Virus record (IMG/VR): IMGVR_UViG_3300010348_002226
Location: 5,484-69,483 of that record
Reading direction: 5' to 3' (one strand)
DNA: 64,000 nucleotides
Origin: a virus
Lineage: Duplodnaviria > Caudoviricetes
Shown: positions 9,472 through 64,000 of the stretch, piece by piece
Numbering within the stretch: position 1 is the first letter of the stretch
How the letters are laid out: the number at the start of each line of letters is the position of its first letter
Notes under the pieces: model-generated
Seen by the model: only the letters and a program-made list of their open reading frames with translations
Told to the model about the DNA's origin: nothing
Databases searched by the model: none
Position numbers and translations under genes: made by a program

Positions 9472-9704
9472 TGACGAAGAAGACGACGAAGCAGAAGTAC
9501 GGTGTGCAGGTTCCGATCGCCGGCTTGGTCTACATCGAGGTCGAAGCCGAGAATGAGAAGGAGGCTGAGGAAGCCGCCTGGGAGGCGATCAACGAGAGGG
9601 GCGCGGAAGCGGGCGAACTGGAGTGGGAGTTCCTCGACGTGATCACCGAAGGCAACGTCTGTCGTGCGCCGTGCGACCGCATCACCGTGGACAAGTTGAA
9701 GTGA
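9471..9704 (+). CDS. Small acidic hypothetical protein
   Basis: Overlapping start/stop codons. Confidence 0.65.
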   Translation: MTKKTTKQKYGVQVPIAGLVYIEVEAENEKEAEEAAWEAINERGAEAGELEWEFLDVITEGNVCRAPCDRITVDKLK

Positions 9705-12445
9705 CCTGGCGCCCCTACAACAAGTTCGGGTGGTGGACCATCCACCTCGACAAGCTCTCGACGAGGCACGAGAAGCTCCTCGAAGACCTGAGCAGCGTGC
9801 CGGGCATCACCGTCGGTGCCGGCGAGTCGCGTGGGGGCTACTTCCTGAACGTCGGCGTCACCGCGCACGAGTCGGCCATGATGACCGACGTCTTCCTCGC
9901 GTTCGAGGATGTCGTTGGGTTGTGTATGGGCGGCGGTATCGAGCCCGACGACGGGCTTTGGGAGGGCGCGCGTCAGCTTCGCCCGTACCAGCGCGAAGCC
10001 GCGCGCTTCCTCTGCGCGACGGGCGGCGGCATGCTCTGCGACCAGATGGGCCTCGGGAAAGGGCTGCCGAACGCGACTGGTGTACTGACGCCGACCGGGT
10101 ACGTGCCGATCGGAGCGTTGCGCGTCGGCGACGTCGTGTGTGACACGCTCGGCGGCACGTGCCGGGTTACAGGCGTGTTTCCACAAGGGGCGCGGCCTGT
10201 GTTTCGTGTGACGATGGCCGACGGAACGTCTGTCCTTGCAGACGATCAGCATCGCTGGCTCGTTCGCTCCCCACAGCACCGATGGGAGAGTAGCGTAGGC
10301 GTTGTACGCACGACCGCGGAGCTGTTGGCCGGAGGACTCCGTACGAAGCCGTCGGCGCGTAACGACAGCAACCGTCGGTGGTTTCTTCCGGACGTGACCG
10401 AAGTGGCGTTCGCGGCGCAGGATGTGCCGATTGACCCCTACGTGCTCGGGACGATGTTGGGGGATGCGTCGTTGCTGGGAACGGTACGGCTCCATACGCA
10501 GGATGCGGATGTGTTGGCCGAGGTGTTGCGCCGTTGGCCGGCGGCACGGGTTTGCACAAGGCCGGGTTTGTCGTTGCCAGGGTTGTTCCGAGCAGTGACG
10601 CAGCTCGGGCTTGCGCGAAAACGCGCGTGGGAAAAGTACGTCCCGCGGGTGTACCTCTACAACACCGTCGAGGTGCGGCGTGCGCTGCTGGCGGGGCTTG
10701 TGGACACAGATGCCGAGTGTCGAAAGGACGGTACCGTGTGTTACACGTCGACTTCGCAGCAACTTGCGGAGGACGTGGCGTTCTTGGTGCGCGCGTTGGG
10801 CGGTGTGGCGTCGGTGCGCCCGCGACGGACTTCGTTCTTGTACGAGGGGGAAAAACGCGAAGGGCGCGTCGCGTACGTTGTCAATATCCGCATGCGAACC
10901 AATCCTTTTTTGGCGCAACAGGCGCGACGCCATCGGTGGAAGCCCTCGATCTGCGCACGCGGCATCGAAGCGATCGAGCCGTGCGGTACGATGGCCACAA
11001 CGTGCATTTCCGTGGACGCGCCGAACGCGTTGTTTCTGACGGAAAACGTGATTCCGACGCACAACACGACTTCGGCCATCGTGGCCGCTGAGACGCTTCG
11101 CCGGCGCGTGGACGAGGGCGCTCCGGTGCTCGTCATCGGGCCGAAGTTCGTGCGCGCGACGTGGAAGCGCGAGCTGCTCGAAAACGGGGCGATCGCGTCG
11201 CCGAGCGAGTTCTTCTTCGCGACGGGCGTCAAGCCGACGCGCGAGCAAGAGCGCGAGCTTCAGACCGCGCGGTATTGGTTCGTGCACTACGAGATCCTGG
11301 AGGCGTGGCGGCACGTCCTCACGCGGCCGCTCTACGCGAAGCGGCCCGTGGTGGCGATCGTCGACGAGGGGCACTGGATCCGCAACCCGAAGGCGAAGCG
11401 TACGAAGGCCGTGCTCGCGTCGGCCGGCATCGCGCGGCATCGCATCCTGCTCACCGGCACGCCGCTCGCGAACCGCGTGGAAGACCTCTGGGTTCCGCTC
11501 ACGTTCGTCGATGGCATGGGCGCATGGGGCACGGCGTTCAGCTTCGCGAGCCGCTACACGATCTTCCAGAAGGACCAGTACGGCTGGAAGTCGCACGGGC
11601 CCGCGCGCATGCCGGAGTTCCAGCACCGTCTGTCGCGCAGCTACCTCCGGCGCGAGGTCGCGGACGTGGGGGCGGAGATCCCGGACCTCACGCGCGAGCG
11701 CATGCTCGTCGAGCCCACGAAGGACTTCTCCGCCGCGATCAAGAAGTGGGCCGGCGGCGACATGGACCGCGCGCTCTCACGCCTCGAAGATGCGCTCGCG
11801 GCCGGGGCGCTCGGCAGCGAGACGCTCTCCGCCTTGACCGAATGGCGGAAGTGGACGTCGAGCGTGAAGGTCCCCGAGACCGCCGCGCTCACCGCGTCGC
11901 TCCTCGCCGAGGGCGAGAGCGTTGTCGTCTTCGTCTGGCAGCGGGAGACGGCGGAAGAGCTGGCGCGGGCGGTCGGCAAGGCGCTCGTCAGCTCGCGCGA
12001 AGACAAGGCGACCTTCTCTTACCGGGCCCACGTCGTGCACGGCGGGATTCCGCAGGCGACGCGGGACGCAGCCGTGGAGGCGTTCCAGACCTACGCCGGC
12101 CCGCAGGTCATCTTCGCGACGATCGAGGCGCTGAAGGAGGGCGTCACGTTGCACGCGGCCCGCCGCGTCATCATCCACGACCTCGACTGGATCCCGGCGA
12201 CGCTGCTGCAGGCGGAAGCCCGCGTGCATCGTCTCGGCCAGAAGCGCGCGTGCGTCGCGACGTGGATGGTGGTCGAGCGCAGTGCGGACGAGCTGATCGC
12301 ACGGCACCTGCTACAGAAGGCGAACGCGATGGCGGCCGCGATCGGCGACACCGGCGCGCAGGTCGCCATCGAGGGTGTCGCCCCGGTCACCGAAGACGAC
12401 ATCGGGGCGAAGTACGCCGCGGAGCTGCTGGGAGGTATGGGATGA
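9701..12445 (+). CDS. SNF2-like (SF2) helicase containing an intein
   Basis: LRPYQ, DQMGLGK|T, IVDEGH, LLTGTP, QAEARVHRLGQ. Confidence 0.9.
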   Translation: MTWRPYNKFGWWTIHLDKLSTRHEKLLEDLSSVPGITVGAGESRGGYFLNVGVTAHESAMMTDVFLAFEDVVGLCMGGGIEPDDGLWEGARQLRPYQREAARFLCATGGGMLCDQMGLGKGLPNATGVLTPTGYVPIGALRVGDVVCDTLGGTCRVTGVFPQGARPVFRVTMADGTSVLADDQHRWLVRSPQHRWESSVGVVRTTAELLAGGLRTKPSARNDSNRRWFLPDVTEVAFAAQDVPIDPYVLGTMLGDASLLGTVRLHTQDADVLAEVLRRWPAARVCTRPGLSLPGLFRAVTQLGLARKRAWEKYVPRVYLYNTVEVRRALLAGLVDTDAECRKDGTVCYTSTSQQLAEDVAFLVRALGGVASVRPRRTSFLYEGEKREGRVAYVVNIRMRTNPFLAQQARRHRWKPSICARGIEAIEPCGTMATTCISVDAPNALFLTENVIPTHNTTSAIVAAETLRRRVDEGAPVLVIGPKFVRATWKRELLENGAIASPSEFFFATGVKPTREQERELQTARYWFVHYEILEAWRHVLTRPLYAKRPVVAIVDEGHWIRNPKAKRTKAVLASAGIARHRILLTGTPLANRVEDLWVPLTFVDGMGAWGTAFSFASRYTIFQKDQYGWKSHGPARMPEFQHRLSRSYLRREVADVGAEIPDLTRERMLVEPTKDFSAAIKKWAGGDMDRALSRLEDALAAGALGSETLSALTEWRKWTSSVKVPETAALTASLLAEGESVVVFVWQRETAEELARAVGKALVSSREDKATFSYRAHVVHGGIPQATRDAAVEAFQTYAGPQVIFATIEALKEGVTLHAARRVIIHDLDWIPATLLQAEARVHRLGQKRACVATWMVVERSADELIARHLLQKANAMAAAIGDTGAQVAIEGVAPVTEDDIGAKYAAELLGGMG
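10061..11065 (+). mobile_element. Intein (335 aa, class-3-like) with a LAGLIDADG-type endonuclease, inserted in Walker A
   Basis: GLPNATGVLTP...HRW...LAGLVDTD...TCISV...PTHN|T; distinct codon usage. Confidence 0.88.
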
Positions 12446-45363: not shown

Positions 45364-46527
45364 TCAACGGGCGTCGCGCGGGTGCCAGGCCACCGCGACG
45401 ACCGCGAGCGCCGTTGCCGCGAGCGAGGCGCCCACGAGCGCGTAGGCCGTCGTCGGAGGCGGGCCCAGGACCTCCGGGTCGATCTCCGGGATGATGAGGT
45501 TCGCCCGGCCGCCCGCGGGGTTCTCCGAGTCGTTCCCCGCCGACGCCACGACCTCGGTCGCGACCCGGTCCGGCGTCACCGGTAGGGCGGGCGAGCCCTG
45601 GTCGACCGTGCCGGGCACGTGCGGCTGCGTGGCCGTCGACCCGGTCGCGAGCGTCGTCACGATGCGCTCGAAGGCCGCCGGGTCGTAGGCCGGCTCCACC
45701 GCGAGCCCTAGGCCGGCTATGGCGCCGCCGGCCCGGCGTGCGGCCGAGGCGAGCCGGCCCCGAGCCCGGGAGAGGTCCGTGGGGCTGCTCAGGACCGGCG
45801 CGAAGGCGAAGCCCGCAGCCGCGGGTAGCTGCGCCGGCTGGTAGCGCGGGTTCGGCGTCCCGACGCGCGCCCGCGTCCGGTCGATCGTGATCGTGCCCCG
45901 CCGCAGCGCCCCCGTCCCGTCGGCGATCGTGATGCCCCGGGAGGCGAAGAACGCGGCCGGGTCCATCGTCGTGCCGAACGCCGAGACGGTTGTCGACGGG
46001 CGGTAGAAGTCGTCGCCCGAGACGCCGTAGAGCGTGTTGTTGTTGCCGGGCAGGAAGTCCGGCGCCTGGTTCTGGTAGGTGCTGCGCTTGAGGTTCCGGA
46101 TCTCGAAGTGCAGGTGCGCGCCCATCGTCGGGAACTCGCCGTTGCGGGTCGCCCCGATCCGCGCAATCTGCTGCCCGCACGTGACGCGGTCGCCGACCTT
46201 CACGTCGAAGTCCTGCAGGTGCGCGTAGAAGGAGCACCACGGCGTGCCACGCGGGCCGTTACCGAGCGACGGATGTTCGACGAGCACGCAGTTGCCGTAG
46301 CCCGAGGTCGCGTTCATGCGGCTCCCCGGCCAGACCTCGTTCCAGGTGTAGCGCACGATGCCGTCGGCGATCGCGTAGACCGGCTTGCCCGTGGGTGCGG
46401 CGTCGCGACCGCAGAAGTCGAGGCCGGCGTGGAAGAGGCGACGACTGCCGCGCTGGCGCATGCCGTAGAAGGAGCCGACGACCATCGTGTCGATGTCCGT
46501 CGGCGGGCAGATGTTCAGGGTGCTCAT
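45364..46527 (-). CDS. Tail-anchored M23 metallopeptidase
   Basis: HAGLD, FYAHL, HLHFE; C-terminal TM. Confidence 0.9.
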   Translation of the reverse strand: MSTLNICPPTDIDTMVVGSFYGMRQRGSRRLFHAGLDFCGRDAAPTGKPVYAIADGIVRYTWNEVWPGSRMNATSGYGNCVLVEHPSLGNGPRGTPWCSFYAHLQDFDVKVGDRVTCGQQIARIGATRNGEFPTMGAHLHFEIRNLKRSTYQNQAPDFLPGNNNTLYGVSGDDFYRPSTTVSAFGTTMDPAAFFASRGITIADGTGALRRGTITIDRTRARVGTPNPRYQPAQLPAAAGFAFAPVLSSPTDLSRARGRLASAARRAGGAIAGLGLAVEPAYDPAAFERIVTTLATGSTATQPHVPGTVDQGSPALPVTPDRVATEVVASAGNDSENPAGGRANLIIPEIDPEVLGPPPTTAYALVGASLAATALAVVAVAWHPRDAR

Positions 46528-47405
46528 GTCCGTGGCTTTCCGAGCGTGGGTGGAGGGTTCGTGTTCCAGAGGTCGATCGCGTCTTCACGCAGAGGGACGG
46601 CGTGCCCGGGGTCGGAGATCACCAGCTCCGGCTCGCGCCACCCCGGGCGCCGTGGGTCGAAGCGACGGTAGCCGAGGTTCGCACCGCGGACGTCAGCGAA
46701 GAGCCAGCCCTGCTCATAGTAGGCGCGGAGCGCGTCGAGGAAGAGCGGCGTCGCCGGCAACGATCGAAGTTCCTGGTCGAGGTAGACGAGCAGCTTCGCC
46801 ACACCGAGCGCGCGCTCCTCGAAGGTCATGTTGACGAAGAACTGCACGAACGGTGGTGCGTAGCGCCCGTGCCCGGGACTGCGCCGGAGCTTCGCGCGCG
46901 CGACGTCTTCCAGCTCCGCCGCGCGAGCAAGCAACGGGAACCACGCCGCGGGGCGTCCCGCATGCATGTAGACGTTGAAGAGTTGCTGCGTCGCGTCCGT
47001 GATGTGCCGGAGCAGATCGTCGAGCGGCTTCGTCAGCTCGCCGGGGTACGGTGCGATGGCCTCGCGCCAGATCGCGAAAACGACCCCATCACGGTCTTCG
47101 CGCCGTCGCCCCACCACCCAGCGAATCGCGTGGTAGCGCACGAGCCCGCGCGTGATGTCCTGGTTGCCGTGGAGCACGTTCGTGACGAACAGCGCTTCCG
47201 TGTGGTCCGTCGTGAGCTTCAGGACGACGTCGCTGTCGTGCGTCGGGAGCACGCAGCCGTAGTGGCCGCATCCGTACTCTTCGTACTCTCGGTCGAGGAA
47301 GTTCCACTTCGGTCGGTACCTGGGCGCGACGTTCGTCTCGATCTCGTCGACGATGTGCGGCAGAAGCTCTTCGACCCAGGGGGTTGCGGCGAGACCACGC
47401 GCCAT
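46524..47405 (-). CDS. Kinase-like protein
   Basis: GCGHYG, VVLK, ADVRGAN, ISDPG. Confidence 0.75.
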   Translation of the reverse strand: MARGLAATPWVEELLPHIVDEIETNVAPRYRPKWNFLDREYEEYGCGHYGCVLPTHDSDVVLKLTTDHTEALFVTNVLHGNQDITRGLVRYHAIRWVVGRRREDRDGVVFAIWREAIAPYPGELTKPLDDLLRHITDATQQLFNVYMHAGRPAAWFPLLARAAELEDVARAKLRRSPGHGRYAPPFVQFFVNMTFEERALGVAKLLVYLDQELRSLPATPLFLDALRAYYEQGWLFADVRGANLGYRRFDPRRPGWREPELVISDPGHAVPLREDAIDLWNTNPPPTLGKPRT

Positions 47406-47407
47406 CG

Positions 47408-48946
47408 TCACAGCTCCTTGATCTCGACCCGCAAGAGGTCGGGTCGAAGCGGGACGGCGTGGCCCGGGTCCGTGATGATCCAGGCGTTCCAGCCGTCGTC
47501 GTCGAGCGGCTTGCCGATGTTGTTCCGGTGCACGTCGGCGAGCACGAAGCCTCGCTCGAAGTACGTGTGGAGGGCGTCGCCGACTCGGTAGAGGCCGTCT
47601 TCCTGGGAGAGCTGTTCCGAGTAGATTCGGAAGCCGGTGAGCGCGAGGGCGAGACGAAGCGGCCCGCGCGCAAGCTCCAGCCGCCCGTCGTACACGCCCA
47701 TGCTGTCGTAGTTCGCACGCACAGCCTGGTCCTCGTAGTCGGCCGCTTCCGCGAGCGCGGCGAACCACTCCTCCGGCGACTTGGCGCGCTGGTAGCGTGC
47801 CCGCAGCGCGCGTCCTGCGGCTTCGATGGTCCACAGCCGACGAACGCCATCCGACAACGCATCGTCCTTCGGATCTACGGTGAACGACGACGTGTGCGCG
47901 TGCCGTCGCAGTCGTCCGATCTCGTGCGCCTCGGAGCGCCAGATCGCGTAGACGGGGCGCCCGCGCCGCTCTTCCGCGGGCAGCGTCCGGACGTCGAAGT
48001 AGCGGACGAGCCCCTCCGTTTCGTCCTGCTGCCCACGGAGCACGTGCGCGACGAACCAGGCCTCGGACGGATCGGACGTGACCTTCAGGACGACTCCGGG
48101 CGTCCGGGTCGGCATGACGCAGCCGTAGTGTCCGCAGCCGTACTCCTCGAAGGACTTGCGGCCCCGGGGCGCGTTCAAGATCGGGACGGGCGCCCACTCG
48201 GGCGAGACCTCGCTCTCGATGCGGTCGAGCACCTTCGCGAGCGCCTTGTCGACCCAGGGCGTCTTGCCGAGACCGGAGGTTTGCATGGTCTGTCCTTTCG
48301 TGAGGCCAAGGTCGCTCTCAAAGTCGCGGCGAACGTCGAATGTGCGCCCCGTGCGCGCTTCCAGCGTGGCAAGTAGCGCGAGCCCATCCGCGAGCGTGAG
48401 CGCCGCGTTGTCCTCCACTGCGAGCTGTCGAATCGTCATGGCGAGGTCGAAGGCTTCCTCGCCCGTGAACGGTGCGGAGGAGCCAAGGCGCGCAACCACG
48501 GCGCGCACACCGCGAGCGCGTACCGGGAACGCGAAACCCAAGTCGAGCAACACGACCCTGCCGTCTGGCGTCTGCCGCACATCTTCCGTCTTCGCTTCGA
48601 TGCCGCGGTAGTCGAGACGGTCTGCTTCCGCGCGAACGCGCTCAAAGACGTGCCGCACCGAATCGCCTGCGAGCCAGCCAACACGCTCCCCGGTGATTGC
48701 CTCGCGCACGAGCACATCCTGCATCGCGTCATAGCGGATGAAGCGCGGCACGTGGGCTGCAACGGCGGTGCCGCCGAGCAGTCGCAGCAACTCAGCCTCC
48801 TCCGCTAACGTGTGTGGCGGTGCGTGCTTGCCGACCTTGAACGCAAGGCCGCGTGCGTCGCGAAACACGGCCCCCTCGGCGCCTTCACCGAGCAAAGTCA
48901 ACGGAGGCGTGGCCCCCGCGCGTACCGCACGCGCCTCCAGGCTCAT
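47408..48946 (-). CDS. Tandem double kinase-like protein; possible internal start at 48286
   Basis: GEGAEG/FKV/LDLG, then GCGHYG/VLK/ADVHRNN/TDPG. Confidence 0.75.
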   Translation of the reverse strand: MSLEARAVRAGATPPLTLLGEGAEGAVFRDARGLAFKVGKHAPPHTLAEEAELLRLLGGTAVAAHVPRFIRYDAMQDVLVREAITGERVGWLAGDSVRHVFERVRAEADRLDYRGIEAKTEDVRQTPDGRVVLLDLGFAFPVRARGVRAVVARLGSSAPFTGEEAFDLAMTIRQLAVEDNAALTLADGLALLATLEARTGRTFDVRRDFESDLGLTKGQTMQTSGLGKTPWVDKALAKVLDRIESEVSPEWAPVPILNAPRGRKSFEEYGCGHYGCVMPTRTPGVVLKVTSDPSEAWFVAHVLRGQQDETEGLVRYFDVRTLPAEERRGRPVYAIWRSEAHEIGRLRRHAHTSSFTVDPKDDALSDGVRRLWTIEAAGRALRARYQRAKSPEEWFAALAEAADYEDQAVRANYDSMGVYDGRLELARGPLRLALALTGFRIYSEQLSQEDGLYRVGDALHTYFERGFVLADVHRNNIGKPLDDDGWNAWIITDPGHAVPLRPDLLRVEIKEL

Positions 48947-49158
48947 GCGGACCTCTCGACCGACTCGGCGACGCGCGTGGCGGCGAGCACGCCGCCGGCC
49001 ACGATGCCGATGAGGGTGAGCAGGTTCGCCGTGCGTTCGTCGCCCCGCATCCGGAGCGTGAGCACCAGCACCCCGCCGACGGTGCCGAGCGCGATGAGGC
49101 CGAGCTGCAGGTTCGCCTGCTGCTCGCGATGAGGGTCGTAGCCGAGGGTCGTGTCCAT
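48943..49158 (-). CDS. Small two-TM protein
   Basis: SD AGGAG; hydrophobic. Confidence 0.65.
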   Translation of the reverse strand: MDTTLGYDPHREQQANLQLGLIALGTVGGVLVLTLRMRGDERTANLLTLIGIVAGGVLAATRVAESVERSA

Positions 49159-49214
49159 GGTCTCTCCTACGGGTAGGATGCCGAGCCACGCCCCTCGGGG
49201 CAACGGTCCCGGCG

Positions 49215-54011: not shown

Positions 54012-55400
54012 TCACGGCCCGACGATGTTGGTTCCGATGGTGGTTCCCGTACCGGTGTCGCTGTATGCACCGGTGATCCGATTGCTCGTGACGATCGTGT
54101 TCGTGACTGTTGCACCTGCAACGCTCAAGTTCCGACACGTGTTGCCGCTCATAATGGCCGAAGTCGCCGCGCCCGCCGCGCCCGCGGTAAGCGCAACGTC
54201 ACCCTTCGTGTAAACGCCCTCAACGGTGAAGCCGTCCACGCGCGTCCCCGCGGTGTTCGCGACCGTCATGGCCACGTTCCCGACACCCGCGCCACCATTC
54301 GACATGCGGAGATCGGACAGCAACAGGTCTTGCATGGTGAGCCCACTACCCACCGACCCAGCGAAAAGCGCATGCGAGGTGTTCGCTGTTGGGCTCGCGA
54401 TCGCGCGAACCCGCGATACGCGCGTGCCAAGGATCGTTGGCGTCGACGCTCCGGCGCCGCTCGCGGACACTGCTACCGCGTAGCCCGACACCGACAACGT
54501 GCCGCGCATGTCGTGGTCCACGTCGTCGATCAACGGACCCCGCACGGTACCGGTGATCGCCTGCGTCCCCGCCACGTTGCACGCGGAGTTGACACCCTGC
54601 GCGCGAAAACCACGGATCACCGTCGCGTAGATGTTCGTGAGGAAACCGACACCTGCAGCGCCACCGGTAGGGACGACGAAGCTGCAGTTGCGGACGACAT
54701 TCGGCGCCGACGGTTCGGTGTACGCCGCTGCCACGCTGTAGAGGAAGATCCCGTATGGAACACCGACGCCGAACGTCGTCAGGTTGGCGACGCGCATCGC
54801 GACGTTCTCCCACGTGACGCCGCCGATCACCGGAGCGCCTTGGTAGGAGAAGCAAATCTTCGTGGCATCGACCACCACGCCCGTGTTGTCGCCGAGCACC
54901 ACGTCGAGATTGCGATAGGTGCACCCTGCGCTAATGCCGATGGCGCCGCGCGCGTTCGCAACGTTGCCGGCAGCGGGATCACGGGCAATCACCGTCATGT
55001 CCGTGATCGTCACATCCGCGCCGGGGTCAAGCACCGTACCCGCCTGCGTTGTCGTAGCGACAGGACCCTTCAGAATCGTGCACCCAACGCCAGCACCCTG
55101 CAGGTTGCACCCCACAGGCGGAGTCAACGTGCTGCCCGACGTGTAGGTGCCCCGTCGTAGATAGACGTTCACACGGAGCGGTGCGAGCGCAGCAGCCGCC
55201 GCGAGCGCGGCCGCGATGCCCGTTCCGTCGCCGGGGTCGAGGTAGTTGCAGACCGAGGTCGTGTCGCCCGCGAGCGCGTTGCCGACGACGATCGCAGCTT
55301 CGTAGATGTCGGTCGTCGGTCCGCTGCTGCCGCCGCTGCCGTCGCCCGCGCCGTAGATCGGGACGACCGAGCCAATCGCTTCGCTGGGGGTATGCAGCAT
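54012..55400 (-). CDS. Spike with a pectate-lyase-like beta-helix (possible depolymerase)
   Basis: VYLRRGTY...LQGAGVGCTIL; G/T/V/N-rich repeats. Confidence 0.75.
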   Translation of the reverse strand: MLHTPSEAIGSVVPIYGAGDGSGGSSGPTTDIYEAAIVVGNALAGDTTSVCNYLDPGDGTGIAAALAAAAALAPLRVNVYLRRGTYTSGSTLTPPVGCNLQGAGVGCTILKGPVATTTQAGTVLDPGADVTITDMTVIARDPAAGNVANARGAIGISAGCTYRNLDVVLGDNTGVVVDATKICFSYQGAPVIGGVTWENVAMRVANLTTFGVGVPYGIFLYSVAAAYTEPSAPNVVRNCSFVVPTGGAAGVGFLTNIYATVIRGFRAQGVNSACNVAGTQAITGTVRGPLIDDVDHDMRGTLSVSGYAVAVSASGAGASTPTILGTRVSRVRAIASPTANTSHALFAGSVGSGLTMQDLLLSDLRMSNGGAGVGNVAMTVANTAGTRVDGFTVEGVYTKGDVALTAGAAGAATSAIMSGNTCRNLSVAGATVTNTIVTSNRITGAYSDTGTGTTIGTNIVGP

Positions 55401-55403
55401 GGC

Positions 55404-56174
55404 TCAGCGTTCCTTCTGCGCCCAGAGGCGGAAGACCTCGGGGCCGTTCTCGGGCGTGAGCACCGGCGTGTTCGTGTCGGCGCCGCGCTGGTCGTCGTAC
55501 TTCCCGTAGGCGAGTCGAAACCAATCGTAGGGCGACACGTCGAACACGAGCGTCGTCTCGACCTCGACGCGCTGCGGCACCGTCGTCGACGGGTACGGGA
55601 TGTTGAGCTGCGTCATGTAGACGTTGCGCGCGCCGTACTGGACGGGGAGGAGCGACGTCATGGGGTTCGTCACGGTCGGCGCGATGCCGCGGATCACCGG
55701 GTCGACGACCGAGATCGAGAACCACTGCTTCGGCGCCTGGCCGCCCTCGTAGTACGGAAGCGAGGAGTTCGGAATCGCCCACGGCGTCGCCTTGTCGTTC
55801 GCGACCTGCGGGATGAAGGCGAGGGCGTTCGTCGGGTCCGCCGGCGGCAGCGCGCCGACGACGTACGGGATCACGTACTGCACGAAGAACGTGAGCCGTC
55901 GGTAGCCTCGAACGTCGATCGCCTCCGTGAGGTTGAGCCCGGTCGCGAGCGTCTCGACGTACGCCGGAAGCACGTCCGTCACGAGGTACGGTTCGGTCGT
56001 CTCGTTCGGCACCATGACGAACGGGAAGCTCTCGTCGCCCGGAAGCGGCTTCGCGCCGGTCGGACTCTGATAGGCGACGACGAGGCCCGCGTTGCCGCTG
56101 TCCTCGCGCATCGCGCGTTCGCGCGCCTCCATGAGCGGCGTGTAGCCGGTGCCGCGACGTTCATCCCTGGGCAT
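55404..56174 (-). CDS. Putative vertex/spike-base protein
   Basis: Beta-rich; upstream of the spike genes. Confidence 0.6.
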   Translation of the reverse strand: MPRDERRGTGYTPLMEARERAMREDSGNAGLVVAYQSPTGAKPLPGDESFPFVMVPNETTEPYLVTDVLPAYVETLATGLNLTEAIDVRGYRRLTFFVQYVIPYVVGALPPADPTNALAFIPQVANDKATPWAIPNSSLPYYEGGQAPKQWFSISVVDPVIRGIAPTVTNPMTSLLPVQYGARNVYMTQLNIPYPSTTVPQRVEVETTLVFDVSPYDWFRLAYGKYDDQRGADTNTPVLTPENGPEVFRLWAQKER

Positions 56175-56445
56175 GGTTCTTCCCCTGCGCCTGCTCGGCG
56201 GCTTCACGCGCGATGCCGACAACGCTCTGCAACTGCGAGAGCATGCCGGGGTAGCGCTTGTTCACGAACGCGGTCAGGCCGAGACCGACGAAGTTGGCGA
56301 CGGCCTTCGCGCCAGCCTGGACCTTCGGCAAGCACACGTTGCAAATGACCACCTGGTGCTTGCCCGCGCGAACCGTCTTCGCGTCGTCGGTGTCGTACAC
56401 CACGTGTCCGCACGTGCACGTGTACGGCTGCGCGAGCTTGCTCAT
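56161..56445 (-). CDS. Small Zn-ribbon plus amphipathic protein
   Basis: CTCG, CNVC. Confidence 0.65.
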   Translation of the reverse strand: MSKLAQPYTCTCGHVVYDTDDAKTVRAGKHQVVICNVCLPKVQAGAKAVANFVGLGLTAFVNKRYPGMLSQLQSVVGIAREAAEQAQGKNHAQG

Positions 56446-56627: not shown

Positions 56628-57026
56628 CTACCTCCGACGGACCATCATACCCCCGATTCCGAGCCCGACGAGACCGAGCAGGCCGAAGCCCACGCGGTAG
56701 GTCGTGGAGTCGAGGGACTTGCCCCAGATGCCCACGAGGCCCGCCGTGACGCCGCCCTGGAGCAGCGCGCCAGCCGTGGCGGACCGCGCGGTCCGGCCGA
56801 CGGCGTACGCGACGCTGCCGCCGAGGAGCGCGGCGCCGATGACCGTCAGGCCGTAGGCGGGCGCGGGCGAGAGCGCCCCGAGCCCGGCGTTCGGGTCGAG
56901 GTGCGGGAAGACGCCCTGGATCGACGGGATCCCGGGGCCGGTGATCGGGGCGACCGCGGCGATACCTGCCGTCCCCGAGGCGCGGGCTGCCGCCTGCTCG
57001 AAAGCCCGTTCGGCGTCGCTCTTCAT
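56628..57026 (-). CDS. Multi-TM virion membrane protein
   Basis: Three hydrophobic helices; ends RRR. Confidence 0.7.
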   Translation of the reverse strand: MKSDAERAFEQAAARASGTAGIAAVAPITGPGIPSIQGVFPHLDPNAGLGALSPAPAYGLTVIGAALLGGSVAYAVGRTARSATAGALLQGGVTAGLVGIWGKSLDSTTYRVGFGLLGLVGLGIGGMMVRRR

Positions 57027-57991
57027 GCGTCGACCTCCAGCATGTACTTGCTCGGCGTCGCGTCGTTCAGGCTCGCGAGTCGCCGCACCCGACCGAGGCC
57101 GTTCATCGACGACTTCGGCTTGTAGAACGTCTTGTACGTCCACCACCCTGCCGCTCCCACGCCGAGGAGAACCACGGCGAGCCCGATGTACCAGATGGCG
57201 CCCTTGCCGGGCGCGGTGTTCGCGAAGAACCGCGTCACTTCCGTCGTCGAGAACGCCTGGTTCACGACCGCGGCGCACTGCGCAGGCGTGCCCCCCTGGG
57301 CAACGCACTGGTCGTAGACTTGCCGCCGATCGTGAAGGATCTGCTCCAGCGCGCGACTCTGTGCCCACGTCACGTACGCCTGCGACAAAGCACTCGTCAA
57401 CGCATCGATGAAGTAGATGTCAGCGATCACGACCGCGGTTACCGCCAGGATGATGCCGCCGATGAGCACGAACTGCGCGACGCCGAGTCCGTTCGTGCCA
57501 CCACCCGTCTGTACGGCAGGCACGTTCCTCGGCGTCTCAGGGCGCACGGACGGCAGCCACGTCGGCCACGGCACCCGCGCCATGAGCTGGTCGCCGGCGA
57601 AGCGCCCGACGGAACCGTAAAGCGCCTTCCGTAGCGCACGATGGTACGCAACTTGTGTGTTGTGAACCTGGTGCCGAAAAGTGTCGTACTTCGGGTAGTC
57701 GGCCGCCGCCACCTGCCCGACGTTGTGCTGGCGGATGAAAGCGTTGGCCGTCACCACGGCGGCACCCTCGACGACCATGAGCTGCTGAACAGCATCCCGC
57801 ACCGTCTGCACCCGATCGAGCACCTGCTGCGGGAGGAGGACCATCATCAGCGGGTCGCGCTGCGCGGCCTTCTGGTAGGCGATCTCCCCGGGCGTGGGCG
57901 CGATCGACGTCTGCGACTGCACCGCCGCGTCCGGGTTGATCGACGCGAAGCCCTGCCCGAATGCCCGCGCGTTGTAGTAGTTGCCGCCCAT
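57023..57991 (-). CDS. Virion membrane protein with GLG motifs
   Basis: Two TMs; TNGLG, MNGLG. Confidence 0.75.
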   Translation of the reverse strand: MGGNYYNARAFGQGFASINPDAAVQSQTSIAPTPGEIAYQKAAQRDPLMMVLLPQQVLDRVQTVRDAVQQLMVVEGAAVVTANAFIRQHNVGQVAAADYPKYDTFRHQVHNTQVAYHRALRKALYGSVGRFAGDQLMARVPWPTWLPSVRPETPRNVPAVQTGGGTNGLGVAQFVLIGGIILAVTAVVIADIYFIDALTSALSQAYVTWAQSRALEQILHDRRQVYDQCVAQGGTPAQCAAVVNQAFSTTEVTRFFANTAPGKGAIWYIGLAVVLLGVGAAGWWTYKTFYKPKSSMNGLGRVRRLASLNDATPSKYMLEVDA

Positions 57992-58117: not shown

Positions 58118-58447
58118 TCAGCCGGCGTCGACCGCCGCGTAGAACTCCGTGATGACCGACGTGTGCGCGACGCCCACGTCCGCCTGCGCCGCCATCCGCT
58201 GCTCGGGTGCGAGCCAGAACTCGATGACCTGCCCCGGGTAGATCGGCGCCTGCGAGTAGGGCCGGCTCGTCATCAGGTCGAGGTCGCTCGGGTCGATCGC
58301 TGCGAAGACCTGCGGGGCCTGCGGGACGATGAACTGCACCTTCCGCAGCCGGGCGTCGCCGTCGGGGAGCGGGTCGACGACGACCTGAAGCTCCTGCGAG
58401 AGCGTCTTCCGTTCGAGCGTGGAGTGCAGGAACTTGAGGCCGTGCAT
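58118..58447 (-). CDS. Small beta-rich structural protein
   Basis: 109 aa; directly after the capsid-like genes. Confidence 0.65.
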   Translation of the reverse strand: MHGLKFLHSTLERKTLSQELQVVVDPLPDGDARLRKVQFIVPQAPQVFAAIDPSDLDLMTSRPYSQAPIYPGQVIEFWLAPEQRMAAQADVGVAHTSVITEFYAAVDAG

Positions 58448-59457
58448 CAGGTCACCATGACGTAGCCGGCGAAGCCGACGGCTGCGGGGAAGGTGTTCGT
58501 GTTCGAGGCGCCCTTCACGCGGAGCAGCTCGCCCGGTTCGAGCGTGAGGCCGTCACCCGGGAACTGGTGGACGACCGCGTTGTTGACGTCCGTGCCGAGC
58601 AGGCAGAGCGGCATGCGGTAGATCGCCTCGGGGTAGACCGGGCCGCGGAACCACCACGCCTGCGTGCCGTTGCCGTTCTGGCGCACGCCGATCCGGAAGA
58701 GCCGCGCGTCCGCGAGACTCGTTCCCGTCGGCGCGTTCGTCTGCCCCTCGCCCGGAGTGAAGAGCCCCGTCTTCGCGGCCATCACCGTCATCTCGGTGAT
58801 GATCACGGGCTCGTTGCCCGTGTTCTGGAGCTGCGAGGGGTCGACGACCCAGATCGCACCAGCCCGCGTCGCCTCACCCGAGTAGAGGTACGGCCGGCCC
58901 GACTTGAAGCCGAGGCCGGTGAACTGGACCGTGATCACGGCCGCCGCGTCGCTCACGCCCGTCGTCGAGAGGCTGTAGGGCGGCCACTGCACCGACGAGA
59001 AGTCGTACGGGCTGTCCAGCTCGACGCGGAGCGAGTCGCGCGAGGAGAGCACGAGCGGCTGCGCGAAGCGGTGCGTCACGATGCCGTTGTTCATGCTCGT
59101 CGGCGGCGCGACGACCTTGTTCTGCCACGCGGGCCCACGAATGAGCCGCTCGTTCATGTAGAACTCGCCGTAGCGCTCGACGCGGAAGAACATGTCCTGA
59201 ATCGCCGCCTGCGACGGCCACTTCAGCGTGTTCTGGTCCGACATGATCGGCATCGGTGCGGCGATCATGTGCGTGAGCCGCACGGGGAACTGCTCGCCGT
59301 TCTTGTAGGCGTCGGAGTCGGAGTTGCCGATCTCCTGCCCCACCGCGGTCGCCACCGTCGGGAAGTCGAGGACGTCGTAGTAGAAGCGCGGCTCGACGAG
59401 GACGCCTTCGCCTCGGTTGCGGGACGCGAACTGGACGAGATCGTTGTAGCTGGGCAT
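58447..59457 (-). CDS. Putative double jelly-roll-like capsid-associated protein
   Basis: Internal duplication: FPVRLTHM/EPVIITEM, PLVLSSRDSLRV/LTLEPGELLRV, FTG/FAG. Confidence 0.55.
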   Translation of the reverse strand: MPSYNDLVQFASRNRGEGVLVEPRFYYDVLDFPTVATAVGQEIGNSDSDAYKNGEQFPVRLTHMIAAPMPIMSDQNTLKWPSQAAIQDMFFRVERYGEFYMNERLIRGPAWQNKVVAPPTSMNNGIVTHRFAQPLVLSSRDSLRVELDSPYDFSSVQWPPYSLSTTGVSDAAAVITVQFTGLGFKSGRPYLYSGEATRAGAIWVVDPSQLQNTGNEPVIITEMTVMAAKTGLFTPGEGQTNAPTGTSLADARLFRIGVRQNGNGTQAWWFRGPVYPEAIYRMPLCLLGTDVNNAVVHQFPGDGLTLEPGELLRVKGASNTNTFPAAVGFAGYVMVT

Positions 59458-59460
59458 GGA

Positions 59461-60654
59461 TCAGGCCTCGACGACGGCGTAGCCGGTGAAGGAGAGGTAG
59501 ACGATCGCTTGCGGGCGCACGATCTGCTCGTCCGGCGTGACCGTCGGCAGCGCGATGTCGTGCAGCGAAAGGTTCGGCAGCGTGACGCGCAACCCCTCGT
59601 TCGGCTGCAGCGTGATCGGGCGCGCGAGGTCGGAGACGAGGCCCGGCGTCTGCGTCGGGCACGCCGCCGCGAGCGGGAGCCCGTCGCGCCACCAGTAGGC
59701 GCTCGTGCCGCCGTTGCGCGAGCGCACGCGCCCGAGCGTGGTGCAGAGGAGCGAACCCGTGAGCGGGCTGCCCTGCGTGTAGAGGACTTCGTCGTCGAAC
59801 GCGCGCTGGTCGATCGTCCAGCCGAAACCGCGGAGCTGCGTCGGCATGACGAAGGTCGACTTCTGGTCGACCATCTGCTTCGCGGTGAACGTCAGCGACG
59901 GCGGGTACACCTGCGTCTCCGTGCCGTCCGAGAAACCCTGGAACGGCCCGTCGGGGAAGCTGCCTTCCCCGCTGCCCGTGGGCCCGAAGAGGTTCTGGTA
60001 GCGCAGGTTCGCCGCCGCGTTCGTGAGCTGCGGCATCACGGATCGCTGCTTCACGTACGCCGAGCCCGGGAAGTTCGCACCTTCGCCGGGTGCCGCGGCG
60101 AAGAAGTTCGTATCGATCTCCACCGGCGTCGCGCTCGTCGGCACGCGCGTCGGCACGCGCCCCGAGAGCGTGACCTCCATCAGCGCCGCCGGCGGCAGCA
60201 CGCACGGATGGTCGAAGTCCCAGCGCACGGTGTTCTGCACGTCCCGCGTGCGCGTGTTCGGCGTGAGCGAGAGCGTGGTGCCCATCGACATGAGCGCCGG
60301 TGCGTCGTTCATGTAGTCGAGCGGCTCGCGCGCCGTCGCCATCGAGCGCGCCGCGAACGCCGGCGCGATCTCGCCGAGCGAGTAGCGAAGGCCACCCGAG
60401 AGACCGATCTCGATCGGGAGCTTGTCGAGGAAGTGCGCCGCCGACTCCGGGTAGCCGACGGGGTGCATCGCGAGCGCGATCGCCTTCGTCAGCACGATCG
60501 GCCAGCGACTTCCGTTGTAGAAATCGTCGCGACCAGGGGACAAGAGACGCGTCGCGCCATCGTCGTCGCGGTAGAGCCCGATCGCGCCCCAGAGCACGCG
60601 TGGCTCGTAGTAGAAGTCGGGCTTGAAGACGGTCAGGTCGTGGGCGTCGCGCAT
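59461..60654 (-). CDS. Putative double jelly-roll-like capsid-associated protein (paralog)
   Basis: WPIVLTK, PCVLPPAALMEV, PITLQPNEGLRV, FTGY. Confidence 0.55.
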   Translation of the reverse strand: MRDAHDLTVFKPDFYYEPRVLWGAIGLYRDDDGATRLLSPGRDDFYNGSRWPIVLTKAIALAMHPVGYPESAAHFLDKLPIEIGLSGGLRYSLGEIAPAFAARSMATAREPLDYMNDAPALMSMGTTLSLTPNTRTRDVQNTVRWDFDHPCVLPPAALMEVTLSGRVPTRVPTSATPVEIDTNFFAAAPGEGANFPGSAYVKQRSVMPQLTNAAANLRYQNLFGPTGSGEGSFPDGPFQGFSDGTETQVYPPSLTFTAKQMVDQKSTFVMPTQLRGFGWTIDQRAFDDEVLYTQGSPLTGSLLCTTLGRVRSRNGGTSAYWWRDGLPLAAACPTQTPGLVSDLARPITLQPNEGLRVTLPNLSLHDIALPTVTPDEQIVRPQAIVYLSFTGYAVVEA

Positions 60655-60678
60655 GGGGGAATCCTAGCCTGAAACGGA

Positions 60679-60716
60679 AACGCCCCTCAAGCCGTTGGCC
60701 CGGCTCAAGGGGCGTT
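60679..60716 (-). terminator. Terminator after the three small capsid-like genes
   Basis: AACGCCCCT...AGGGGCGTT stem, then T-rich on the minus strand. Confidence 0.65.
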
Positions 60717-60736
60717 CCAGGGGGTGCGCCCGTTGA

Positions 60737-61447
60737 TCAGGCGACCGGGCGGCGCTTCATGCCGTCGAGCCAGAGACGCAGGCGGATGTCCTGGTTCACG
60801 TCGGCGAGGGCGCCTTCGGGGGACGAGACCTTCACGTAGAACACGCGATCGGACTCGATGTAGACCGGGATCTCCCAGCGCCACTGGTTCGTCGAGGAGA
60901 CGCGACCGGCGGTGCCGTAGTCGGCCGCGCCGAGCGTGAGCGTCGGACCCGCCGCGACCGAGGCGATCGTGGTGCCGTGCACGACCGGACCCACCGACTG
61001 CGGGATCCGCGAGAAGGGCACGCGGGCCTGGGGCTTGTTCACGTTCGCGCCGACGAACAGCTCGAAGAGCAGCGAGCGCTGCATCGCGAGCAGGTTGTGG
61101 CGCGAGACCTGGGGCGCGCGTGCGGCGAGCACCGCGGCGTCGGCCGGGGCGATGCGGGGGTCGGCCGCAGCCGCCGAGAGACCGAAGGCCTCGTACGTCG
61201 CCGCGTAGATGACCAGGGCTTCGTCCTGGTTCGTGCGGTTGCGGACGGTGCTGTTGGTGTCGGCGTCGTCGGCCGTGCGCTTGGTGAGGCCCTCGGAGGG
61301 AACCTGCTGGCCCGCGATGTAGCTGAAGGCGCGCAGGTTGATCTTCGAGTAGGCCGCGAACTCGATCGTCGAGAACGAGGGCCAGTGGATCCACTCGTCG
61401 ATCTTGAGGTTCGTGCCGTCGGGGAGGCGGATTTCACGGATGGCCAT
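60737..61447 (-). CDS. Putative single jelly-roll major capsid protein 3
   Basis: LPDG..W..P..ST start; LDGMKRRPVA end. Confidence 0.6.
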   Translation of the reverse strand: MAIREIRLPDGTNLKIDEWIHWPSFSTIEFAAYSKINLRAFSYIAGQQVPSEGLTKRTADDADTNSTVRNRTNQDEALVIYAATYEAFGLSAAAADPRIAPADAAVLAARAPQVSRHNLLAMQRSLLFELFVGANVNKPQARVPFSRIPQSVGPVVHGTTIASVAAGPTLTLGAADYGTAGRVSSTNQWRWEIPVYIESDRVFYVKVSSPEGALADVNQDIRLRLWLDGMKRRPVA

Positions 61448-61465
61448 GTCGGTACTCCTGAATCC

Positions 61466-62161
61466 TCACGCCACCGGGCGCTTGTGGTAGCCGTGGAGGA
61501 AGGCGCGGAGCCGGATCCGCGAGTTCGACTGCGGGAGCGAGAGCCCGGCGACCTCGCCGCGCGGGGTGAGGTACCGCAGGCGGAAGGCCTCGCCGCCCTG
61601 GATGAAGAGCGGGCTCGCGAGATGCCGCAGGCCCTTGACCGACGTCGCGCCGTTGCTCGCCGCGATGTAGCCGTTGGCGAAGTCGCCGCCGACGCCCGAC
61701 GCCGTGCCCGACTCGATGCCCGAGCCGGCCGCCATGAAGGCGAGGGGAGCACGGATGTACTCCTTGACCGACGCGATCGAGATCGTGACGAGGAGGTCCC
61801 GCTGCATGCGGAGCATGTTCGAGAGCCCGACGTCCGGCGCGACGACGTTGTTGTCGTCGGTCGCGAAGATCGCGCCCGGAGGCGGAATCAGGTACGCCTC
61901 GACGCTGATGGCCTGGACGACCATCGCCTCGTTCTCCGGCAGACGACCGCCCTCGCCCTGCAGGTTCGTGTCGAGCAGCGTGGAGGTGCGCTGCGTCGCC
62001 GAACCGGGGACCGAGCCGCCGATGCCGTAGGTGAACGCCTCCTGGGTGACCAGGGGGCCGGCCTTGATCTCGACCGTGGACCAGATGGGCTCCGCCGTCG
62101 TCCAGTCCGCCGGGGTGACGGTCTGTCCGTTCGGGAGCCTGACCTTGAGAAGCTGCGACAT
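61466..62161 (-). CDS. Putative single jelly-roll major capsid protein 2
   Basis: LPNG..W..PIWST; LHGYHKRPVA end. Confidence 0.6.
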   Translation of the reverse strand: MSQLLKVRLPNGQTVTPADWTTAEPIWSTVEIKAGPLVTQEAFTYGIGGSVPGSATQRTSTLLDTNLQGEGGRLPENEAMVVQAISVEAYLIPPPGAIFATDDNNVVAPDVGLSNMLRMQRDLLVTISIASVKEYIRAPLAFMAAGSGIESGTASGVGGDFANGYIAASNGATSVKGLRHLASPLFIQGGEAFRLRYLTPRGEVAGLSLPQSNSRIRLRAFLHGYHKRPVA

Positions 62162-62182
62162 GGTGTTCTCCTGCTCCGTCGA

Positions 62183-62929
62183 TCAGGCGACCGGGCGCTT
62201 GTAGAGGCCGTCGAGCAGGACCCGGACCTGGAAGAGACGGTTCGTCTCCGCCACCTCGGGGGGCTCGCCGAGCACGTTCGACGCGAGGCCGATGTTGAGC
62301 GCCGCCCCGGACGGGTTGACGATCGCGACCTCGTACTTCTCCTGGCCGCCGATGTGGATCGGCACGGAGAGAGCGCGGACCGCCGACTGCCCGGGGAGGC
62401 CGGCCGTCGCGGGGATCGCGACCGTCGCGAGACCCGGGACCGACGCCTGCGCCATCGGGCCGAAGCCGGTGTTGTAGTAGCCGAGCGGCGCCTGGTGCTG
62501 CGTCTTCTGCGAGACGCGGATCTCCAGGAGCGCGAGGCGGAAGAGCGCCGCGAGCTGCCACATCATCGGCACGGGGTCGAGCGGGAGCCGCTCGGTCGCC
62601 GTGGTGGCGTCGGTGGGCGTCTGCGGATCCGTGCCGAGCGCGTTGTACTCGGGGCGGATCGCGTAGATCAGCATCTCCTCGGTCGACGCCATGGCACTCG
62701 GGGTCGCGATGTTCGTGTCGCGATCCGAAGCCGTGCGCTTCGCGGTGATGTTGTTCGACGCGCTCACCGAATCGCCGTTCGTGTAGTTGAACAGCGGGAT
62801 GCGCTCGTCGGTGGCACCCGTGAGGATGTCGCAGGTGGAGTAGAGCGGACGGTCGGTCCAGTCCACGAAGGCCACCTGCCGACCGTCCGGGAGGCGCATG
62901 GTGGTGATCTGGTTGATGGGCTGCTGCAT
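62183..62929 (-). CDS. Putative single jelly-roll major capsid protein 1
   Basis: LPDG..W..PLYST; LDGLYKRPVA end. Confidence 0.6.
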   Translation of the reverse strand: MQQPINQITTMRLPDGRQVAFVDWTDRPLYSTCDILTGATDERIPLFNYTNGDSVSASNNITAKRTASDRDTNIATPSAMASTEEMLIYAIRPEYNALGTDPQTPTDATTATERLPLDPVPMMWQLAALFRLALLEIRVSQKTQHQAPLGYYNTGFGPMAQASVPGLATVAIPATAGLPGQSAVRALSVPIHIGGQEKYEVAIVNPSGAALNIGLASNVLGEPPEVAETNRLFQVRVLLDGLYKRPVA

Positions 62930-62955: not shown

Positions 62956-63537
62956 TCAGGCGTTGAAGCCCGGGGTGCCGAACGCCGTCGTGTTGACCGC
63001 GCCGAGGCCCGAGAGGTTCACCTCGGTGCCGTACGCGGCGCCGAGCTGACCGATCGAGTCCGGACGCTGGCCCTGGGGCCACTGCTCCAGGACGGTCGCG
63101 CCGAGGCCGGCCATCTCGGGCATGACGGCGCCGAACTGCGGCATGATGGCACCGAAGCCGCCGATGCCGGCGACGCCGCCGAACTTCTCGTTCAGCATGA
63201 GGGCGCCCGAGGTCGCGACCGAGGACGCGATCACCGCGGTGCCGGCCGTGCGACGGCCCATGCCGTACACGAGGCCGAGGCCCACGAGCGCGCCCGCGCC
63301 CATGCTCACGAGGTACGCGTTCCGCGAGAGGAACTGCATCGCGGAGTTCGCCGACTGGCCGGCGAGCTTCCGGAACGCGACGATGGTCCCGAGCGCGAGG
63401 CCCGAGCCGATCACGATCGGAAGAGCGTCGCCGACGACGGTTCCCGCGTCGAAGAGCCCGTCGAAGCCCTTGCGGACCGAGATGATGGAACCGAAGCCGT
63501 AGTGCTTGCGGCGGTGCTTGCGATGACGCTTGGCCAT
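62956..63537 (-). CDS. Virion membrane protein with a basic N-terminus and repeated (G)(L/F)GA units
   Basis: TM helices; GGFGA, QFGA, AGLGA, QLGA, SGLGA. Confidence 0.8.
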   Translation of the reverse strand: MAKRHRKHRRKHYGFGSIISVRKGFDGLFDAGTVVGDALPIVIGSGLALGTIVAFRKLAGQSANSAMQFLSRNAYLVSMGAGALVGLGLVYGMGRRTAGTAVIASSVATSGALMLNEKFGGVAGIGGFGAIMPQFGAVMPEMAGLGATVLEQWPQGQRPDSIGQLGAAYGTEVNLSGLGAVNTTAFGTPGFNA

Positions 63538-63611: not shown

Positions 63612-63908
63612 TCAGCGGGCCTTCCGGCGGCCCTTCCGCGCCTTCTTGGCGGCCTTCTTCGCCTTGCGGCCGGCGACGTACGCCCCGCCGCCGAGCGCGC
63701 CCTTCGCGAACTTCTTCGCGGTGGCCTCGCTCTGGAAGCAGTTGATGAGCTTGTCGTTCTTCGAGTAGACGCAGAACGAGCCGGCGTGGGTCTTCTTGCG
63801 TCCCTTGCGCGCCTTCTTCCGCTTGCCGCGGAGACCGCCGAGCGCCTGAATCGAACGGCCGGCGGGATCCCCCGAGGCCCTCATCGCCGAGCATCCACAT
63901 CCAGCCAT
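63612..63908 (-). CDS. Small, highly basic core-like protein
   Basis: K/R-rich; start MAGCGCS. Confidence 0.75.
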   Translation of the reverse strand: MAGCGCSAMRASGDPAGRSIQALGGLRGKRKKARKGRKKTHAGSFCVYSKNDKLINCFQSEATAKKFAKGALGGGAYVAGRKAKKAAKKARKGRRKAR

Positions 63909-63916
63909 GGGCTTCA

Positions 63917-64000
63917 CCCCTTCTTCCAGATCAGGTACGCCCCGCCACCGGCGAGGAACGTGATTCCGAGCGCCACGAGGAAGAAGGGGTGAAGCCCATG
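63917..64000 (-). CDS. C-terminal end of a tail-anchored membrane protein (start outside the window)
   Basis: HGLHPFFLVALGITFLAGGGAYLIWKKG*. Confidence 0.6.

Follow-up and report, generated by a model that had tools for sequence, protein, structure and literature searches.

What kind of particle would be built by a phage genome in which no head or tail gene can be recognised? The question is raised by a block of six genes at positions 58,118 to 62,929 of a 64,000-nucleotide stretch (hereafter the window), which covers bases 5484-69483 of the 69,483-bp IMG/VR virus record IMGVR_UViG_3300010348_002226. In order of transcription on the minus strand, the block encodes proteins of 248, 231, 236, 397, 336 and 109 amino acids (aa). 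The first three (SJR-A, SJR-B and SJR-C) are paralogs with a single jelly-roll (SJR) fold, and the 397- and 336-aa proteins form a second pair, each apparently made of two barrels in tandem. We propose, with a probability of roughly 0.55, that a large tailless virus uses A, B and C as quasi-equivalent major subunits of its shell and the two-barrel paralogs as minor shell or vertex components.

The three small genes are true paralogs. SJR-A, -B and -C align end to end with 29-32% pairwise identity, their invariant residues include RLP.G, W, P..ST and a C-terminal G...RPVA, and cross-paralog tblastn gave E-values of 1e-10 to 1e-25, so that the N- and C-terminal motifs noticed in these adjacent genes by an earlier model, which had only the letters to work with (the sequence-only reading), are part of a full-length relationship. 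Compared with Pfam and PHROGs, the six proteins of the block and their neighbours gave no significant match. The fold comes from a structural model of SJR-B based on a 47-homolog alignment (predicted local distance difference test, pLDDT, 85.7; predicted template modelling score, pTM, 0.81). With this model, Foldseek returned the SPV1 capsid protein as the best match (probability 1.00, E 2e-3), followed by HHIV-2 and SH1, and the nearest solved structures to the trio fold are the capsid proteins of SPV1, HHIV-2, SH1 and HCIV-1, bearing out the single jelly roll that had been predicted for the trio. The hit lists also hold exosporium and pilus proteins. Given that a non-viral jelly roll, peptidylglycine monooxygenase, scores 6.1 against the SJR-B model, the fold can be considered secure and the kinship to one particular capsid family cannot. 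Profile A2 found nothing among PDB sequences, which include those of SH1, HHIV-2 and P23-77, and profiles A3 and A4 gave chance-level matches. A prediction of the A+B+C complex from family alignments, run without controls, scored 0.03 against a mark of 0.32 and counts neither way on binding.

The family is widespread. A profile of the three paralogs gathered 274 clusters at 50% identity (154 at E <=1e-10), all of 200-270 aa, and SJR-B has 70 homologs at >=36% identity, several on 62-89-kb contigs and one in the 4.7-Mb chromosome of a Gemmatimonadota metagenome-assembled genome (MAG). In a FastTree phylogeny of 135 full-length members, A, B and C form clades of 58, 29 and 29 tips with supports of 98, 100 and 97, respectively. 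The presence of these clades among the 135 sequences implies that the triplication is older than the sampled diversity. Orthologs map 1:1:1, with 39-57% identity versus 25-32% between paralogs. Outside orthogroups A, B and C, thirteen other SJR representatives make up a clade of their own (support 90), which may correspond to a fourth paralog type or to viruses that have another number of shell genes.

Regarding the pair, the 397- and 336-aa proteins are, according to hhalign, paralogs over their full length (probability 99%, E 2.5e-18, 317 columns). The internal repeat is marginal in single-family profiles (E 0.016 and 0.18). In a joint profile of both families, the N half aligns with the C half at E 1.7e-5 (probability 78%, 147-150 columns), pairing NGEQFPVRLTHM with NTGNEPVIITEM and PLVLSSRDSLRVEL with LTLEPGELLRVK, the same segments quoted earlier in support of a module present twice in each gene. 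This suggestion is corroborated here: in each of the larger proteins, as the aligned halves show, a beta module of ~160 aa occurs twice in tandem. The model of the 336-aa protein (pLDDT 88.1, pTM 0.86) shows six strands per half in the same order, and its single-barrel matches include the second barrel in the capsid proteins of PBCV-1, EhV, faustovirus, PRD1 (P3) and STIV. A likeness to birnavirus VP2 was discarded, the Foldseek matches having template modelling (TM) scores <0.25. Since, in addition, the best ESM Atlas shape match reached a TM of 0.44/0.47, the two-barrel arrangement appears to match no known two-barrel capsid protein. For the 397-aa family we found 29 homologs. The ESM Atlas model of the 397-aa protein itself is unusable (pLDDT 0.28), and the PM2 domains P2_N and P2_C indicated by its ESM Atlas features (score 0.76) went unconfirmed: Pfam gave no match over 30 members of this family and neither P2_N, P2_C nor any other capsid family in all 68 members of both two-barrel families.

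Do the trio and the pair belong together? The sequence-only reading had put their modules in a single family, and had seen in them a possible intermediate between single and double jelly-roll architectures. Profile-profile comparison, with E-values of 0.005-0.09, does not support this single family. What the SJR family shares with the 336- and 397-aa families is a 23-27-column hairpin motif alone (E 0.08 and 0.005), and the 135-sequence SJR profile aligns with the half-modules in a colinear, non-significant way (E 0.006 for the C half and 0.09 for the N half). The idea of an intermediate thus lacks support from common descent, and what stands of it is the tandem duplication.

Gene order was compared in nine relatives with enough flank, and the order A-B-C-397-336 proved invariant in all of them (9/9). 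Eight of these modules lie on 30-88-kb viral contigs and the other in a ~13-kb island of a Gemmatimonadota chromosome. Between trio and pair, where a terminator had been proposed, the window has a hairpin with a 15-16-bp G+C-rich stem (dG -41.9 kcal/mol, z -3.1) followed by the U-rich tail UUUCCGUUUC; the consensus terminator scan missed it because the U-tract is interrupted. Hairpins of differing sequence follow gene C in relatives L002, L003 and L004 (4/4 genomes checked, counting the window), that of L004 carrying a classic U-tract. In this last genome, the terminator hairpin is closely followed by an extra open reading frame (ORF) of 116 aa (L004:11542-11892), placed ahead of the 397-like gene. 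The Shine-Dalgarno (SD) sites of the trio are AGGAG or GAGGAG (GAGGAG in SJR-A), and that of the 397-aa gene is a weaker AGGA; the 109-aa gene is translationally coupled to the 336-aa gene. Identity to the window is highest for the trio (39-57%), lower for the 336-aa protein (30-43%) and lowest for the 397-aa protein (23-36%). The stronger SD sites, the hairpin after gene C and the higher conservation speak for the trio as the more abundant products. Of the earlier 'three major plus two minor' scheme, then, the division into major and minor fits these signals, and the shared family is not supported.

These signals also bear on a reversal of roles, in which the 397- and 336-aa paralogs would be major capsid proteins of the double jelly-roll (DJR) kind found in PRD1, PM2 and STIV, and the trio would supply penton, cement or minor proteins. 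We consider this unlikely. The pair is less conserved than the trio and sits behind the hairpin with weaker ribosome-binding sites, and although two tandem barrels in 336-397 aa would suit DJR capsid proteins, whose genes usually adjoin an SJR penton gene (Bamfordvirae), the barrel arrangement in the 336-aa model does not look like that of a DJR protein. The second-barrel matches of this model speak for the reversal, as would the PM2 clusters, the nearest named ones to the 397-aa protein in the ESM Atlas, but their score is just 0.76 and neither two-barrel family has a capsid Pfam match; moreover, the FtsK/A32 ATPase that is a hallmark of the DJR group was not detected.

This last result comes from a search for head, tail and packaging genes with hidden Markov models (HMMs). 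ORFs of ~250 aa or more gave no capsid, portal, terminase or tail match in Pfam or PHROG. A six-frame search of the whole record with TerL_ATPase, Terminase_6N, Phage_capsid, Phage_portal, FtsK_SpoIIIE and Pox_A32 was also without match, each of these models detecting its target in named control genomes; by accession, PF05065, PF04860, PF03354 and PF03237 (for HK97 capsid, portal and large terminase) and PF01580 and PF04665 (for FtsK/HerA-type and A32-like packaging ATPases) had no six-frame match. Terminase_6N, Phage_capsid and FtsK were also without match in five IMG/VR relatives, of which two (76,963 and 80,634 bp) are complete and have terminal repeats. A weak FtsK match in relative G004 corresponds to the P-loop of a RecD-like helicase, with no counterpart in the window genome. 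The Walker A proteins of the genome are an AAA_24 protein and a DUF3987 helicase alone, both in the replication module. At the HMM level, therefore, the earlier statement that HK97 capsid, portal and tail genes are lacking holds for the whole contig.

One could still imagine that the phage is tailed, with HK97, portal, terminase and tail genes too far diverged for HMMs and with jelly rolls serving as decoration, fibre or baseplate parts. Jelly rolls are known in fibres, baseplates and cement proteins, and our hit lists do hold phage 7-7-1 fibres, a KP1 baseplate and a KHP40 cement protein; the ESM Atlas labels neighbouring clusters Uroviricota, and the coiled-coil and membrane segments of a 763-aa protein would not be out of place in a tape measure protein. 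However, the large terminase subunit is the best-conserved phage gene, and it was undetected in six frames of the complete record and in the five relatives; the HK97-fold capsid and portal of Caudoviricetes were likewise undetected by HMM, no large ORF has a Pfam or PHROG capsid, portal or tail match, and the trio, conserved, provided with strong ribosome-binding sites and followed by a terminator, has the look of major structural genes. A tailed phage is, in our opinion, very unlikely.

The chromosomal copy of the module (L002:4308-16980, in Gemmatimonadota MAG chromosome CP070815.1, at about 1.18 Mb) occupies a ~12.7-kb island of 23 ORFs, none with a Pfam family, which holds a transmembrane protein, A, B, C, a 372-aa and a 328-aa protein and a 109-like protein. 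Its flanks are host-like, with Lactamase_B and M23 on one side and an ABC transporter on the other. No integrase, recognisable replication or packaging gene was found in the island, nor a flanking (att) repeat or tRNA. Possible identities of the island are a small provirus, a remnant and a domesticated module. If the jelly-roll proteins formed a cellular or domesticated structure on a mobile element, for instance a surface layer, a compartment or a particle akin to a gene-transfer agent, this would agree with the island and with the exosporium and pilus proteins that jelly rolls also form, but it is highly improbable as an explanation of the block, since the presence of shell genes in only 2/401 Gemmatimonadota genomes argues against a cellular function, 8/9 other modules lie on viral contigs, and the record, of IMG/VR class virus and 100% complete according to CheckV, also encodes a DNA polymerase, helicases, an integrase, an M23 peptidase and spike-like proteins. 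Two further matches were seen in this same Gemmatimonadota genome (G006). At G006:C1:2236722-2240876, ~1 Mb from the shell island of the same genome, a 1503-aa frame matches the UDG-exonuclease-PolA protein of the window in three pieces, with 40% identity in the polymerase part, and may be part of another related element or an intein-bearing copy. At G006:C1:3715519-3715893, a fourth, divergent SJR-profile match (N-terminal half, E 1.6e-12) lies in a 237-aa frame.

With A, B and C as major subunits, the block would be the outer-shell module of a tailless bacterial virus, probably with an internal membrane. The three proteins would have diverged long ago into non-interchangeable subunits, always co-encoded in a fixed order, and would fill distinct quasi-equivalent capsomer positions, like the SJR pairs of SH1, HHIV-2 and P23-77 or VP4 and VP10 of SPV1. 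Their conserved ends, the N-terminal RLP.G..W and the C-terminal RPVA, may serve as contact arms. The hairpin after gene C would reduce transcription of the downstream genes, and the stoichiometry would follow from it: the 397- and 336-aa proteins would be made in smaller amounts, as minor shell parts most likely placed at or around the vertices. Judging from the membrane-anchored neighbours and the two very basic proteins, the particle may have a lipid layer and a core of condensed nucleoprotein; as no packaging NTPase was detected, the DNA could become enclosed during assembly (co-assembly, the mode proposed for SPV1) instead of being pumped in.

Some points weigh against this proposal. It is drawn from sequence and predicted structures. 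The absence of HK97 and packaging genes depends on the sensitivity of the HMMs, and ORFs of 763, 668, 421 and 410 aa are without match. The structure models cover the 231- and 336-aa proteins. Finally, the match of the 336-aa model to known jelly rolls concerns one of its two barrels.

Among known systems, SPV1 (Portogloboviridae; PDB 6oj0) has an all-SJR shell of VP4 hexamers and VP10 pentamers, an internal membrane, subcapsomer proteins, a nucleoprotein core and a circular genome, and encodes no replication machinery of its own (PMC8459092). Our genome resembles it in its SJR shell candidates, its overlapping ends, the membrane-anchored proteins, the two basic proteins and the lack of a detected packaging ATPase, in so far as an architecture can be deduced from gene content. 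It differs in showing no sequence similarity (as the A2 search of PDB illustrates), in its likely bacterial host, in its size (69 kb versus 20 kb), in having three shell paralogs plus two two-barrel proteins, and in carrying its own replication genes (PolA-UDG, SNF2 and DUF3987 helicase). This combination looks more like SPV1 than like the Halopanivirales or the PRD1-type viruses, because both of these groups depend on a packaging ATPase.

The Halopanivirales (SH1, HHIV-2, HCIV-1 and P23-77 with VP16/VP17) are tailless, membrane-containing viruses that also present several paralogous SJR capsid genes side by side, next to which they encode an FtsK/HerA-type packaging ATPase. Such an ATPase was found neither in the shell module nor in the whole genome here; there are three paralogs instead of two, and no sequence or profile similarity was obtained with Pfam, PHROG or A2 against PDB. 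Membership in this order thus fails both on the packaging ATPase and on similarity to its capsid proteins. Halopanivirales genomes measure 16-19 kb and ~30 kb (PMC12642351, PMC12643093), and the one described here is 2-4x larger. With the DJR viruses (PRD1 P3, PM2 P2, STIV B345 and FLiP), the likeness consists of the two tandem homologous barrels of the 397- and 336-aa proteins, but the barrels, as seen in the 336-aa model, do not appear to superpose on any DJR protein, no A32/FtsK ATPase accompanies them, and there are two such paralogs, seemingly the less abundant partners. Prokaryotic DJR viruses are also tailless and encode SJR proteins alongside.

The tblastn search of SJR-B against 50,697 deposited phage records gave no match, and no description of the lineage was found in the literature searched, the coverage of which is incomplete. 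The genome is probably that of a large tailless phage from a group not yet described, and the lineage may merit family or higher rank. To our knowledge, the bacterial and archaeal viruses with SJR shells have genomes of 16-31 kb, and all but SPV1 carry a packaging ATPase. If our proposal is true, the size range of tailless phages is enlarged to SJR shells around 64-88 kb of DNA without a recognisable motor, the question arises of how this DNA enters the shell, and virome surveys keyed on terminase or HK97 markers overlook such viruses. Three paralogs that always occur together predict hetero-oligomeric capsomers, and the origin of multi-barrel capsids could be tested on a genome that pairs tandem-duplicated with single-barrel proteins. 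A wider scenario can be drawn, and we put it forward tentatively, as a possibility that we would not favour as a whole. It would comprise a realm-level lineage of 64-88-kb bacterial viruses, with hosts including Gemmatimonadota, in which an icosahedral shell of three co-evolving SJR proteins would lie over a membrane and the DNA, condensed by basic proteins, would be enclosed without a motor, a larger bacterial counterpart of SPV1. The pair would stem from a separate jelly-roll module of the same operon, duplicated in tandem and then again, an independent and extant single-to-double barrel fusion of the kind proposed as the origin of DJR capsids. The shell module would also serve a ~13-kb integrated element, and one set may then build shells of very different sizes.

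Table 1. Coordinates of the shell block and of the genes around it (positions in the window).
Feature	Position	Strand	Evidence or remark
SJR-A, 248 aa, first of three SJR paralogs, orthogroup A	62183..62929	-	paralogy, tree, synteny
SJR-B, 231 aa, structure-modelled SJR protein, orthogroup B	61466..62161	-	
SJR-C, 236 aa, third paralog, orthogroup C	60737..61447	-	paralogy, tree, SD AGGAG
G+C-rich hairpin and U-rich tail between trio and two-barrel genes, putative terminator or attenuator	60655..60736	-	
Two-barrel protein D, 397 aa, paralog of the 336-aa protein	59461..60654	-	hhalign
Two-barrel protein E, 336 aa, a ~160-aa beta module duplicated in tandem	58447..59457	-	
109-aa acidic protein, conserved module member	58118..58447	-	start overlaps 336-aa gene stop (ATGA)
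193-aa Gly-rich membrane protein, directly upstream of SJR-A	62956..63537	-	two hydrophobic segments
101-aa highly basic protein (K+R 30%, pI 11.3), candidate DNA-condensing core protein	63612..63917	-	
322-aa protein with two membrane segments, downstream module member	57023..57991	-	
272-aa beta-rich and 462-aa beta-helix-like proteins, candidate vertex/spike proteins	54012..56222	-	role inferred

Several genes around the shell proteins are shared with the relatives. Orthologs of the 109-aa protein occur in L002, L003, L006, L008 and L011 (30-41% identity), those of the 193-aa membrane protein in 7 relatives, those of the 322-aa protein in L003, L006 and L007, and those of the 272- and 462-aa proteins in L003 and L006; for the region of these last two, Pfam gave a weak pectate-lyase-like match alone (E 0.22). 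Proteins with membrane segments around the shell genes are those of 193, 322, 127, 289 and 763 aa. Two Cys-containing basic proteins upstream of the shell genes, the 101-aa one (with a 46% identical ortholog in L003) and another at L001:1558-2238 (-), have 29-30% Lys+Arg and a pI of ~11, and are candidate DNA-condensing core proteins.

As for the record itself, its IMG/VR topology label is linear. Bases 1-126 are repeated at 69339-69464 (the repeat region to the end, 69339-69483, is window 63856-64000), and this end overlap implies that the unique genome measures ~69.3 kb and is circular or terminally redundant. At the very end, 19 bases repeat nearby sequence in reverse complement, an inverted tail that resembles an assembly artefact. 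Given the 68% G+C of the DNA, genes were called by third-position G+C, which is 0.93-0.95 in the ORFs of the block. Two large late-strand ORFs of 557 and 593 aa (window 46524-49189, -), which the sequence-only reading had called kinase-like, had no Pfam or PHROG match. Products that could be recognised include the UDG-exonuclease-PolA fusion, the SNF2 and DUF3987 helicases, AAA_24, DUF932 and a tyrosine integrase, together with an M23 peptidase, an SGNH hydrolase and a protein with a LamG domain. The SNF2-family helicase (window 9623-12445, +) is split by a LAGLIDADG/Hom_end homing-endonuclease domain at residues ~340-423, an insertion that indicates a putative intein.

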